DNA of 64,000 nucleotides from a virus (taxonomy: Duplodnaviria > Heunggongvirae > Uroviricota > Caudoviricetes): IMG/VR virus record IMGVR_UViG_3300024268_000012; one strand, 5' to 3'. Positions 30,961 to 31,511 of the stretch are shown one piece after another. A model generated the notes under the pieces. The model was not told the origin of the DNA. It did not search any database and was given only the letters and a program-made list of their open reading frames with translations. Within the stretch, counting starts at the first letter, position 1; the number at the start of each line of letters is the position of its first letter. A program made the translations under genes and the position numbers.

Positions 30961-31511
30961 GCTGGCGTAGCTCAATTGGCAGAGCAGCTGATTTGTCAAT
31001 CAAACTCAGTGAAAAAATGATATGGAATTAACTTCAAAACAAAAAGGTAATCTCACTGAATTACAATGTTTAACTGCATTTTCTCAATGTGGATATTCAG
31101 TAAGTATTCCTTATGGTGATAATTCTAAATATGATTTTATCGCAGATGTTGATGGACGACTATTAAAAATTCAGGTAAAAACCGCATCATTAAAAAATGA
31201 AGGCGCAATTAAATTTTCTTGTAGAACTACGCATGTTAATTGTGCTGGAGTTAAAAATGAACGGTATTCAAGCAATGATGTTGATTATTTTGCTACTTAC
31301 TGGGAAGGTCAATGTTATCTTGTACCTGTAAATGAATGTTCAGTAGAAAAAACTTTACGATTTGAATATCCTAAAAATGGTCAGAAAAAAGGTATTACTC
31401 TTGCTTCTGAATATAAATTGGAAATTCAACTACAAAAAGTAAAGGAGGAAGTAGCTGAGCATTGATAGATAAATCAGCAGGTTGGGGGTTCAAGTCCCTT
31501 CGCCAGCTCCA
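30961..31511 (+). tRNA. tRNA gene split in the anticodon loop by a ~480-bp insertion encoding a PD-(D/E)xK-like ORF; anticodon ambiguous (GAT/TTA-like)
   Basis: 5' half GCTGGCG-TAGCTCAATTGGCAGAGCA-GCTGA-TTT. 3' half ..ATAAA-TCAGC-AGGT-TGGGGGTTCAAGTCCCTT-CGCCAGC-T-CCA. Stems are perfectly complementary across the insertion. Confidence 0.5.
31022..31465 (+). CDS. Intron-encoded PD-(D/E)xK-type nuclease-like protein, paralog of 20942-21373
   Basis: 147 aa with E..YDFIADVDGRLLKIQVKT. It has the same architecture and tRNA context as the paralog. Confidence 0.5.
   Translation: MELTSKQKGNLTELQCLTAFSQCGYSVSIPYGDNSKYDFIADVDGRLLKIQVKTASLKNEGAIKFSCRTTHVNCAGVKNERYSSNDVDYFATYWEGQCYLVPVNECSVEKTLRFEYPKNGQKKGITLASEYKLEIQLQKVKEEVAEH

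Follow-up and report, generated by a model that had tools for sequence, protein, structure and literature searches.

Protein-spliced tRNA introns are regarded as a hallmark of archaea and eukaryotes. Archaeal bulge-helix-bulge introns with homing endonucleases occur in rRNA and tRNA and are spliced by EndA and RtcB. The intervening sequences of bacterial 23S rRNA are excised from an extended stem by RNase III, with no re-ligation. In phage T4, SegB is free-standing in the tRNA cluster, and Pnkp and Rnl1 reseal anticodon loops cut by PrrC. We know of no protein-dependent tRNA splicing in bacteria or phages. Every tRNA intron reported to date in bacteria or their phages splices itself; most belong to group I and a few to group II (PMC13011429). 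The prototype endonuclease I-Ssp6803I belongs to the Synechocystis tRNA-fMet group I intron, and others of its kind are found in tRNA-Arg(UCU), in Bacteroidota and Campylobacterota; these group I introns are at least 655 nt long with a self-splicing core of about 200 nt, and the insertion point in tRNA-fMet is 33/34 (PMC13011429; PMC1995217). A full-text literature search returned no ribozyme-less endonuclease insertion in phage tRNA genes and no bacterial or phage protein-dependent tRNA splicing.

We analyzed a tRNA gene interrupted by an endonuclease gene of the I-Ssp6803I family in a 64,000-nt stretch of Caudoviricetes DNA (the window; Table 1). As in the group I tRNA introns, the inserted gene encodes a PF11645 protein, the target is a tRNA anticodon loop, and the lifestyle is presumed to be homing. 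However, the phage insertion has only 31 nt outside its open reading frame (ORF), lacks a detectable core and group I splice-site rules, has its junction always at 36/37, and forms a long helix that pairs with the anticodon. It resembles the archaeal introns in having no ribozyme, in keeping both junctions within a helix that closes off the ORF as a loop, in the approximate two-fold symmetry of these junctions, and in the pairing of intron bases with anticodon-loop bases. Unlike them, it has neither 3-nt bulges nor a 4-bp central helix, it is inserted at 36/37 instead of 37/38, and it carries a PD-(D/E)xK rather than a LAGLIDADG endonuclease in a bacterial-virus context, with no EndA among the window ORFs. 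As in the 23S rRNA intervening sequences, some of which also have an ORF in the loop, a native helix is extended to a long stem, and removal by a protein nuclease in bacteria is what we propose for the phage intron. In contrast to 23S rRNA, fragmentation is not tolerated by an anticodon loop, and from these junctions RNase III, with its 2-nt stagger, could not restore a 7-nt loop. Like T4 SegB, the endonuclease is encoded by a mobile nuclease gene in a phage tRNA array and has distant relatives that are free-standing, but its gene is within the tRNA gene and not beside it. Phage heal-and-seal enzymes that can repair a severed anticodon loop are common to the T4 repair pathway and our proposal, in which they would serve routine maturation instead of damage repair.

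Table 1. Positions of the split tRNA genes, the insertion and its helix, and the RNA-repair genes in the window
Feature	Position	Strand	Evidence
tRNA-Thr(UGU) 5' exon, tRNA positions 1-36	30961..30996	+	ARAGORN -i, D-arm-anchored parse, uninterrupted alleles
Anticodon TGT, end of the 5' exon	30994-30996		
Long helix, 5' strand	30987..31010	+	Co-fold; covariation in 55 non-identical relatives
5' strand, anticodon stem	30987-30991		
5' strand, loop bases 32-36	30992-30996		
5' strand, i1-i7	30997-31003		
5' strand, unpaired A	31004		
5' strand, outer helix	31005-31010		
Insertion (intron) between tRNA positions 36 and 37, 475 nt	30997..31471	+	
PD-(D/E)xK homing-endonuclease gene, I-Ssp6803I family, 147 aa	31022..31465	+	Pfam PF11645
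SD-like GGAGG, 5 nt upstream of the outer helix 3' strand	31444..31448	+	
Long helix, 3' strand	31454..31478	+	Co-fold; covariation
3' strand, outer helix	31454-31459		
3' strand, conserved unpaired CA	31460-31461		
3' strand, pairs with i1-i7	31462-31468		
3' strand, ATA, pairs with anticodon UGU	31469-31471		
3' strand, A37 and A38	31472-31473		
3' strand, anticodon stem	31474-31478		
tRNA-Thr(UGU) 3' exon, positions 37-76, CCA encoded	31472..31511	+	ARAGORN -i, parse, uninterrupted allele
Terminator-like hairpin, 8 bp (6 G-C), then T8; 30 nt past the CCA end	31542..31570	+	Consensus match only
Split tRNA-Asn(GUU), cut at 36/37, 468-nt insertion; exons 20884-20919 and 21388-21427	20884..21427	+	ARAGORN -i, parse
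Paralogue ORF, 143 aa, PF11645 at 105 bits	20942-21373	+	Pfam
Cyclic-phosphate-processing cREC protein, inside the tRNA array	27312-27626		Pfam
Candidate exon-sealing module	40790..50091	+	Pfam; presumed link to the intron
RlaP nucleotidyltransferase	40790-41635	+	Pfam
Phosphoesterases	41635-42444, 47346-48191, 49486-50091	+	Pfam
YqeY-like protein	43670-44125	+	Pfam
ATP-dependent RNA ligase	44128-45570	+	Pfam
P-loop kinase-like protein	48710-49294	+	Pfam

ARAGORN in its default mode found neither of the two split tRNA genes in the window. When introns were allowed, a single tRNA was called here, at exactly 30961..31511 with a 475-nt insertion. The anticodons were misassigned in this mode, with Tyr(ATA) given for the tRNA-Thr and Asp(GTC) for the tRNA-Asn paralogue; both are arbitrary placements of the junction. 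Joining the exons after position 36 yields a tRNA-Thr(UGU) with an ordinary anticodon, an acceptor stem with 7 of 7 Watson-Crick pairs (GCTGGCG/CGCCAGC), perfect D and anticodon stems, and a T stem with two G.U pairs. The uninterrupted gene is identical to the joined exons in two metagenome contigs (76/76 bases) and differs by 1 to 4 bases in others. In 112 viral contigs the 5' part of the tRNA-Thr gene is followed at once by AATCAGC with no insertion, and intact homologues read ...CTGA TTTGT AA TCAG... The ARAGORN call and the PF11645 match support the preliminary description of this locus, according to which a second tRNA gene is split in its anticodon loop by a paralogous PD-(D/E)xK ORF, and the intron-less alleles that it singled out for comparison do exist. 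However, the unusual anticodon that it considered, GAU or UUA, was not upheld. GAU is impossible with a 7-nt loop, and UUA, which would follow from a cut after loop base 3, is excluded by the intact genes, by the U33 and the purine 37 that all relatives show when the cut falls after loop base 5, and by the pairing of the last three intron bases with UGU. The product is a standard tRNA-Thr(UGU), unconnected to the amber suppressor elsewhere for which relevance had been suggested.

The insertion comprises a 444-nt ORF including the stop codon, 25 nt ahead of the ATG, and 6 nt past the stop, so that only 31 of its 475 nt are noncoding. The 147-aa product matched PF11645 over residues 5 to 133 with 109.4 bits (cutoff, 26.1; E value, 2e-31). 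The family profile matched the I-Ssp6803I structure (PDB 2OST_A) with an E value of 2.3e-15 and with the D...QxK region aligned (YDFIADV...KIQVKT against YDLVFDV...KVQVKS), and D38, D42, Q51, and K53 were invariant in an alignment of eight sequences. Judged by its sequence, the protein is an I-Ssp6803I-type PD-(D/E)xK homing endonuclease with its catalytic residues retained. The ORF was absent from the gene index searched.

The ends of the insertion lengthen the anticodon stem to a helix of about 25 to 30 bp, with the ORF as its closed loop. Co-folding recovered 11 bp with one G.U between 30987-30997 and 31468-31478, 5 bp between 30999-31003 and 31462-31466, and 6 bp between 31005-31010 and 31454-31459, divided by an A/A mismatch and an A-versus-CA internal loop; all of the helices listed in the preliminary description were among them. 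Both exon-intron junctions lie inside this continuous helix, offset by 3 bp, and the TGA stop codon of the ORF (31463-31465) sits within the 3' strand. The fold z-scores against dinucleotide shuffles were -5.4 for the tRNA-Thr precursor and -7.0 for its paralogue. We compared 55 non-identical relatives from large phage contigs, representing at least 11 tRNA species. The pairs from 33-37 through i6/i-9 were present in 44 to 55 of the 55 loci, with at most six pair types each, counts that are not of independent events, since the loci come from related phages. In this set 85% of the helix cells were paired versus 34 to 46% in slid registers, and each pair from 34 to i6 scored better than 1,000 of 1,000 column shuffles. 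G.U accounted for 17% of the paired cells, indicating that the pairing works on the sense strand only. The anticodon and the terminal intron triplet combine as UGU/ACA or AUA, GUU/AGC, UUU/AAA, UGG/CUG, UAC/GUA, GAU/AUC, UCU/AGA, and AGU/AUU. The RNA helix is under selection, and the anticodon covaries with the three bases that end the intron. The conserved internal-loop bases keep a fixed distance from both junctions (5' side, 7 nt; 3' side, 10 nt), and the loop is of two types, A versus CA and the CUGA-containing loop of the Asn type. Two other interpretations were discarded. A "pseudo-anticodon arm" formed by the joined intron ends of the window (UUGAU/AUCAA with a 7-nt loop) is not common to other relatives. 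An origin of the inverted anticodon triplet at the DNA level, by target-site duplication or hairpin intermediates, predicts the wrong sequence and leaves the G.U pairs unexplained.

An SD-like motif near the 3' end of the intron is kept at the nucleotide level though the reading frames differ. The 5-mer was found within the last 50 intron bases in 45 of 55 relatives, compared to 12% of internal 50-nt windows, and within 20 nt upstream of the ATG in only 4 of the 55. GGAGG is possibly one half of a split ribosome-binding site. The enrichment of the motif is real, but we propose this role only as a hypothesis because the effective SD-to-AUG spacing across the helix falls into two groups, about 3 to 6 nt and about 13 to 19 nt.

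The architecture noted earlier for the region at 20884-21427 is indeed the same, with a 468-nt insertion called by ARAGORN and a 143-aa PF11645 ORF. The paralogy of the two ORFs also stands, but the early estimate of about 35% identity is replaced by 42% over 135 residues (E value, 9e-42). An intact viral tRNA-Asn gene equals the joined paralogue exons at positions 8 to 65. About 65 of 79 related viral loci share the architecture, and the junction is at 36/37, with a legal loop each time, in all 55 non-identical relatives, whose hosts are tRNAs for Thr, Asn, Lys, Pro, Arg, Ser, Ile, Val, Ala, and Gly. Loci L046 and L048 have introns that are 99% identical and exons that are 72% identical, which indicates homing, and in several further pairs the values are 86 to 88% and 62 to 71%, respectively. 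The shared architecture, the L046/L048 pair, and the uninterrupted allele agree with the earlier view of an old, mobile, and maintained element. With interrupted and uninterrupted alleles and an intron history decoupled from that of the host gene, the element has, on comparison of these alleles, the properties expected of a mobile intron. Close relatives fall in bins of Bacillota and Bacteroidales rather than archaea, and distant PF11645 relatives are free-standing beside intact tRNA-Thr(UGU), tRNA-Lys, or tRNA-Arg genes. When the window was compared by BLAST with 50,697 phage records, tRNAs and metK were the sole matches. No ORF-less mini-versions with the same intron signature were found; the search for them gave instead another class of short insertions.

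The joined tRNAs of all 55 relatives were called as normal tRNAs, with a mean of 0.33 stem mismatches versus 0.55 in 250 intact neighbors, and exon decay was seen in none of the 55 loci. In the otherwise complete tRNA set of the window, tRNA-Asn and tRNA-Thr(UGU) are the sole decoders that have no intact gene. An intact gene with a matching anticodon lies within 10 kb for just 6 of 76 split tRNAs, and four split tRNAs occur together at one locus. The split tRNA genes appear to be needed, but recent and frequent homing could by itself be enough to explain intact exons.

The window also encodes a candidate exon-sealing module (Table 1); 22 Logan contigs contain its RNA ligase. Large phages often carry RNA-repair genes for unrelated purposes, for instance to counteract anticodon nucleases. 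Searches covering essentially all window ORFs (Pfam for about 70 ORFs and PHROGs for 10) found no RNase III, EndA, or RtcB domains. A splicing nuclease was also sought by all-against-all clustering of 1,536 ORFs from 78 20-kb loci, and no shared nuclease besides the homing endonuclease was found in these loci. The recurrent proteins were the homing endonuclease, a TROVE-like protein (31 loci), and small unknown proteins.

We give about even chances to the reading that the insertion is a mobile ribozyme-less tRNA intron that is cut out by a protein endonuclease and sealed by phage RNA-repair enzymes. The element is little more than an I-Ssp6803I-family homing-endonuclease gene, inserted exactly between anticodon base 36 and A37. 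At the DNA level, as inferred from its family, the endonuclease would cut uninterrupted tRNA genes at the anticodon region, and repair would copy the element in. At the RNA level, the helix would be recognized by a protein endonuclease, phage or host encoded, that cuts both junctions while the tRNA body keeps the two halves together. The kinase-like protein, the phosphoesterases, cREC, RlaP, and the ATP-dependent RNA ligase may then heal and seal the ends to a normal 7-nt anticodon loop; the expected 76-nt spliced RNA would read ...CUGAUUUGU/AAUCAG... across the junction (slash). The helix would also bring the two intron ends together, and with them the 3' SD-like motif and the 5' start codon, and expression of the endonuclease would thereby be tied to the folded precursor or to the excised intron. 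Several points count against this reading: the searches of the window ORFs and of the 78 loci gave no candidate endonuclease, no protein-dependent tRNA splicing is known to us in bacteria or phages, phage RNA-repair genes often serve other ends, homing could account for the intact exons, and a continuous helix with a 3-bp stagger fits neither the bulge-helix-bulge nor the 2-nt stagger of RNase III.

The main rival, which we consider unlikely but by no means negligible, is an unspliced selfish insertion that sits in its own target and kills the tRNA, with host tRNA-Thr and tRNA-Asn compensating. The tRNA-shaped ends would then let RNase P and RNase Z free the RNA from the array transcript and would stabilize it, and the helix would assemble the split ribosome-binding site. 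This would account for the fact that neither a ribozyme (Rfam) nor a splicing enzyme (window ORFs and 78 loci) was found. Because very recent homing is documented (L046/L048), intact exons need not imply selection; the SD-like motif at the intron 3' end, with none before the ATG, makes a role of the helix possible without splicing, and the relatives that are free-standing beside intact tRNA genes show that members of the family need not live in introns. However, a selfish insertion leaves unexplained a helix that takes in the anticodon and tracks it through at least 11 anticodons, with G.U pairs and a compensated AGU/AUU. It also does not explain why exons are intact in all 55 loci despite ORF divergence (41 to 79% identity) and adaptation to TAG=Gln recoding, or why the split genes, at most four per locus, fill exactly the gaps of otherwise complete tRNA sets. 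It is improbable, in our estimate, that the homing endonuclease is itself the splicing nuclease, acting on a junction RNA helix that mimics its double-stranded DNA homing site with a 3-base 3' stagger around the anticodon and leaving ends (5'-phosphate and 3'-OH) that the ATP-dependent RNA ligase could join. I-Ssp6803I reportedly leaves a 3-nt 3' overhang when it cleaves its target in the tRNA gene (work attributed to Bonocora and Shub in 2001 and Zhao et al. in 2007), and the stagger between the two RNA junctions equals the three anticodon base pairs exactly. We know of no PF11645 member that cuts RNA, which speaks against this role, and A-form RNA is strongly unlike B-form DNA. In most relatives the intron-side half of the helix is unlike the exon half-site, and the tRNA would hinge on translation of the intron ORF. 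In favor of the role, the window ligase is of the ATP-dependent type, the homing endonuclease is the sole protein that always accompanies the intron in the clustering of 78 loci, and tRNA-splicing endonucleases belong to the PD-(D/E)xK superfamily, as stated in a passage of PMC3424549.

A new small self-processing RNA, in which the helix and its internal loop, perhaps with the tRNA body, cleave and rejoin both junctions, seems very improbable. The conserved internal-loop bases at fixed distances from the junctions and the strong fold z-scores would fit such an RNA, but the invariant bases are very few, one architecture comes with two loop types, the junction bases vary freely with the anticodon, and no Rfam self-cleaving family was matched. 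A conventional tRNA intron, whether a group I intron in degenerate or unusually compact form or a bulge-helix-bulge of the archaeal type that an EndA-like enzyme cuts, is largely refuted and is the explanation that we rate lowest. Archaeal endonuclease-bearing introns also put their ORF in a helix-closed loop at the junctions, and the same protein family is found in group I introns of tRNA-fMet and tRNA-Arg (PMC13011429; PMC1995217). However, 31 noncoding bases compare with about 200 in the 655-nt Synechocystis intron (PMC1995217). The Rfam search of the insertion gave no group I or other ribozyme match at E<=10, and RF00028 gave none at E<=1 in the paralogue insertion and none at E<=0.01 in long-insert relatives, while the same search recovered the group I intron of the neighboring tRNA-Leu(UAA) (22811-23015; 47.4 bits; E value, 2e-10). 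There is no omega-G; the last intron base is A in the tRNA-Thr insertion, C in the paralogue, and any of the four in relatives. The exon base at -1 is U, G, or C, and it is not U in Pro, Val, Ala, and Gly hosts. With no room for a ribozyme and no ribozyme signal, the insertion is not an ordinary self-splicing tRNA intron. A bulge-helix-bulge is contradicted by the junction at 36/37 and not 37/38, by the lack of 3-nt bulges, by a 4-bp central helix that cannot be drawn (1 to 2 of 4 central pairs by manual pairing), by finding no EndA domain in the window, and by the binning of close relatives with Bacillota and Bacteroidales. An RNase III intervening sequence was likewise rejected. A long stem as in RNase III-excised sequences is present in the co-fold, but a 2-nt stagger at one true junction leaves a 6- or 8-nt loop.

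For large gut and rumen phages, we tentatively suggest, with somewhat less than even confidence, that a new protein-dependent pathway with a structure-specific endonuclease excises ribozyme-less mobile introns from the anticodon loop at 36/37 and that phage heal-and-seal enzymes rejoin the exons. The nuclease may be the PD-(D/E)xK protein that the intron encodes, with RNA that mimics its DNA target as substrate. The family breaks a pattern, in that the endonuclease gene of a bacterial group I intron occurs with no ribozyme and with a covarying junction helix in tRNA genes that are apparently needed. Standard tRNA finders miss such split genes, and phage tRNA repertoires and the codon-usage inferences drawn from them are therefore biased. 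If the introns are not spliced, they clearly exemplify a homing endonuclease that disables a tRNA and uses it as an expression scaffold. If they are spliced, these phages encode or recruit a new RNA-processing activity, and the long-standing idea that ribozyme introns lose their core and become protein-spliced introns could be tested in a tractable system. Bacterial viruses would then have their own counterpart of the tRNA splicing of archaea and eukaryotes, and the intron would be a living case of proteins replacing a ribozyme.

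Two tRNA genes with long insertions were called in the window when ARAGORN was run with introns allowed, one at exactly 30961-31511 (475-nt insertion) and one at 20884-21427 (468-nt insertion), and both were missed in a default run. The acceptor stem of the 30961-31511 tRNA is paired at 7/7 positions, its D and anticodon stems are perfect, and its T stem contains two G.U pairs. The 147-aa ORF in its insertion matched Pfam PF11645, the I-Ssp6803I-type homing endonucleases, with 109 bits (cutoff 26), and the ORF of the second gene matched with 105 bits; the two ORFs are 42% identical. 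The family profile also retrieved the sequence of the I-Ssp6803I crystal structure, 2OST (E 2e-15), and the alignment includes the catalytic D...QxK region. The coordinates, the matches and the ORF paralogy bear out the preliminary description of a tRNA gene split by a paralogous PD-(D/E)xK ORF.

Features of the split tRNA-Thr(UGU) gene, its surroundings and related loci
Feature	Coordinates	Strand	Remarks
5' exon of tRNA-Thr(UGU)	30961-30996	+	tRNA positions 1-36
3' exon of tRNA-Thr(UGU)	31472-31511	+	tRNA positions 37-76, CCA encoded
147-aa ORF	31022-31465	+	sole ORF of the 475-nt insertion
Shine-Dalgarno-like motif GGAGGAAGTA	31444-31453	+	near intron 3' end
tRNA-Leu(UAA) with genuine group I intron	22786-23091		intron of 218 nt, after U34; RF00028
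Long-arm tRNA, anticodon CUA	26718-26808
cREC cyclic-phosphate-processing protein	27312-27626		within tRNA array
RNA-repair/quality-control genes	35934-50091		RlaP, three calcineurin-type metallophosphoesterases, P-loop kinase-like protein, YqeY-like protein, ATP-dependent RNA ligase, HNH protein, TROVE/Ro-like protein, major-vault-protein-like protein
Short-insertion tRNAs, other contigs	L006 1157-1305; L093 3180-3336		also L085, L148, L173
Free-standing distant PF11645 loci			genome contigs L097, L098, L100, L104, L106, L115-L117, L122, L129, L137

The anticodon stem of the 30961-31511 tRNA is GCTGA/TCAGC, and its loop has to be rebuilt from 5' TTTGTCA... and 3' ...GATAAA. Only five 5' bases plus two 3' bases (U-U-UGU-A-A) give U33, a purine at 37 and an anticodon matching the tRNA body, and the same junction directly after the last anticodon base (36|37) yields a legal loop in 55/55 non-identical relatives. 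Intact genes in 112 viral contigs have an identical 27-nt 5' part that continues straight into AATCAGC. The comparison with intron-less alleles proposed earlier placed the junction at 36|37 as well, as uninterrupted genes in two metagenome contigs equal the joined exons at 76/76 bases; others differ at one to four positions, with partly compensated acceptor changes. The gene is thus a tRNA-Thr(UGU) gene cut between positions 36 and 37. An unusual anticodon had been suspected, but a 7-nt loop cannot yield GAU, and UUA is ruled out, since the loop rule and the intact homologues read UGU. The paralogue at 20884-21427 is tRNA-Asn(GUU); positions 8-65 of its joined exons have an exact counterpart in an intact viral tRNA-Asn. 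Every amino acid except Asn has an intact tRNA in the window. For four-codon boxes, the phage consistently retains the U34 species (UGC, UGG, and UAC), yet its intact Thr tRNAs are CGU and GGU only. Both gaps are thus closed by the split genes.

IMG/VR was searched first with the ORF and next with an alignment of eight sequences, which yielded 79 loci in viral contigs, mostly of 80 to 195 kb. The ORF lies inside a split tRNA with an insertion of 442 to 488 nt in about 65 of them, and 76 split tRNAs, up to four per locus, were counted when 10-kb flanks were included. The hosts are tRNA-Thr (UGU, GGU, and AGU), Asn(GUU), Lys(UUU), Pro(UGG), Arg(UCU), Ser(GCU), Ile(GAU), Val(UAC), Ala(UGC), Gly(UCC), and CAU species. 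Close relatives, likewise in split tRNAs, were also found in MAG contigs from gut and rumen that are binned to Oscillospiraceae, Ruminococcus, other Bacillota, and Bacteroidales.

The anticodon stem extends as a helix through both junctions across the 55 non-identical loci. With intron bases numbered i1, i2 and so on from the 5' end and i-1, i-2 and so on from the 3' end, the pairs formed were 33-37 (54/55), 34/i-1 (53/55), 35/i-2 (55/55, six pair types), 36/i-3 (53/55), i1/i-4 (54/55), i2/i-5 (44/55), i3/i-6 (53/55), i4/i-7 (39/55), i5/i-8 (52/55), and i6/i-9 (50/55); the loci are related to each other, and these counts are not independent events. Overall pairing was 85%, compared to 34 to 46% in a register slid by 1 to 3 bases, and each pair from 34 to i6 beat 1000/1000 column shuffles. 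What counts is the covariation of the final three intron bases with the anticodon from one tRNA species to the next: ACA or AUA with UGU, AGC with GUU, AAA with UUU, CUG with UGG, GUA with UAC, AUC with GAU, AGA with UCU, and AUU with the variant AGU. G.U makes up 17% of the paired cells, indicating a helix that functions in the sense RNA alone, not in DNA or the antisense strand. The offset between the two junctions is exactly the three anticodon base pairs. In most types, the seven intron-intron pairs give way to a conserved internal loop, with A on the upper and CA on the lower strand, which lies at a constant 7 nt from one junction and 10 nt from the other. An outer helix of 5 to 16 bp follows, and its end adjoins the start codon. 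The internal loop of the Asn and Lys types differs and contains CUGA. In the Asn type (20920-20945 and 21352-21387, and relatives), one strand reads CUGAC and the other CUGAUGU, which by eye could form tandem sheared G.A pairs resembling a K-turn or C/D box.

A Shine-Dalgarno-like motif was present within 20 nt upstream of the ATG in only 4/55 ORFs, but in the last 50 intron bases of 45/55, compared to 12% of internal 50-nt windows. There it is kept in different reading frames (KEEV, GGSN, and LGGIM), indicating a constraint on the nucleic acid. About 5 nt separate the motif from the 3' strand of the outer helix downstream of it, and the ATG follows the 5' strand by 0 to 12 nt, so that the helix might assemble a split ribosome-binding site from the 3' motif and the 5' ATG. 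We offer this as a hypothesis because the spacing is non-uniform. As the stop codon is inside the helix, translating ribosomes would open it.

The insertion is not a self-splicing intron of a known class, and the probability left to known intron classes is very small. Only 31 of its 475 bases are non-coding, whereas the Synechocystis tRNA-fMet intron carrying I-Ssp6803I has 655 nt for a 150-aa ORF (PMC1995217). Rfam gave no match for the tRNA-Thr(UGU) insertion (E≤10), the tRNA-Asn(GUU) paralogue (E≤1), or relatives with longer insertions (E≤0.01). As a positive control, the tRNA-Leu(UAA) intron matched group I model RF00028 at 22811-23015 with 47.4 bits (E 2e-10), slightly below the gathering score. 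Family-wide, the 5' exon ends in U, G, or C and the intron in any of the four bases, contrary to group I splice-site rules. Manual attempts to fit the junctions to a bulge-helix-bulge motif or to the 2-nt stagger of RNase III failed. A new ribozyme is very improbable, and it is unlikely that the endonuclease itself acts on the RNA.

We give about even chances to protein-dependent excision and ligation of the insertion. Its main competitor, an unspliced selfish insertion, is possible but clearly less probable. Recent homing could keep exons intact without selection, and no candidate splicing endonuclease was found in the window by Pfam and PHROGs scans of essentially all ORFs, nor a shared splicing nuclease among genes common to the 20-kb related loci by ORF clustering. 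However, normal tRNAs with standard T loops were called for 55/55 joined-exon sequences, and stem mismatches were fewer (0.33) than in 250 intact neighbours (0.55). An intact gene of the same anticodon lies within 10 kb of only 6/76 split tRNAs, four of the six being CAU, an anticodon covering three different tRNAs; apart from these six, each split gene is the sole copy of its decoder in that range. The helix is also built on the anticodon itself, which counts for splicing, since an element needing only an expression stem would have no reason to use it. The window encodes a rich RNA end-healing and sealing set, which under protein-dependent splicing would seal two tRNA halves that the tRNA body holds in place. 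The common interpretation of such sets is defence against anticodon nucleases (PMC7824862). A TROVE-like gene lies within 10 kb of the endonuclease in 31/78 related loci.

None of the 37 long plus-strand ORFs in the window ends in TAG (23 TAA and 14 TGA). The endonuclease ORFs of four related loci (L023, L026, L031, and L032) have in-frame stops, presumably TAG, at conserved Gln positions, which in some relatives include the catalytic Q; the gene therefore appears to have been long in TAG-recoded phages and to have adopted their code. The TAG-free stops, the tRNA(CUA), and the in-frame stops at Gln point to probable TAG=Gln recoding in this phage group.

Other unusual tRNA-like elements were observed. 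Directly 3' of a terminator-like hairpin after the split tRNA, the element at 31592-31670 matches positions 5-66 of the Rfam tRNA model (45.9 bits) with well-formed D, anticodon, and T arms, but position 33 in its CAUUGAU loop is an A. The 3' strand of its acceptor is not complementary, and the 5' strand GCCGAA pairs instead with an upstream TTCGGC. Three tRNA-model matches (41 to 47 bits) at 14992-15117, 15124-15241, and 15536-15650 have anticodon-region insertions of about 28 to 46 nt, and the 36|37 anticodon-pairing signature is absent from them (4/10 pairs). The first has two alternative 5' anticodon-arm strands, GCGGTCTCCA... and ACGGTCTGTAAAACCGC, so CUA, GUA, or CCA are all conceivable. 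Between two of these odd tRNAs, an 88-aa ORF (15266-15532) gave a sub-threshold ParE/RelE-type toxin match (20.4 bits; cutoff 23). A different class of short 48- to 91-nt insertions in phage tRNA anticodon loops shares a ATAGTTTA motif near the 5' end and ends in a triplet complementary to the anticodon, then CCAWT.

Between two tRNA-Asn loci of other contigs (L046 and L048), the introns are 99% identical and the tRNA genes 72%; several other pairs have 86 to 88% intron and 62 to 71% exon identity. Such a contrast is what homing with very short co-conversion tracts leaves behind. At 1385-2000 of IMGVR_UViG_3300045988_169130 (L007), a free-standing homologue (62% identity) that has a Shine-Dalgarno sequence of its own is flanked by an intact tRNA-Thr(UGU) on one side and an orphan 3' fragment of a tRNA on the other; it looks like a decayed or rearranged split gene. 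Distant relatives (28 to 37% identity) are free-standing genes, either in clusters of the thrU-tyrU-glyT-thrT type in diverse bacteria and DPANN archaea, directly 3' of an intact tRNA-Thr(UGU), or adjoining tRNA-Lys(UUU) or tRNA-Arg(UCU) genes in Ktedonobacteria and Chloroflexia, which suggests a widespread free-standing endonuclease targeting tRNA genes. Published family members lie inside group I introns of tRNA-fMet and tRNA-Arg (PMC13011429); we found no description of the ribozyme-less in-loop setting in the full-text literature searched. The element described here is widespread in a group of large phages: a mobile insertion at 36|37 that carries only an endonuclease, with an RNA helix under selection spanning both junctions. 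Its split-tRNA, free-standing, and group I occurrences make the family a specialist of the tRNA anticodon region in three settings.
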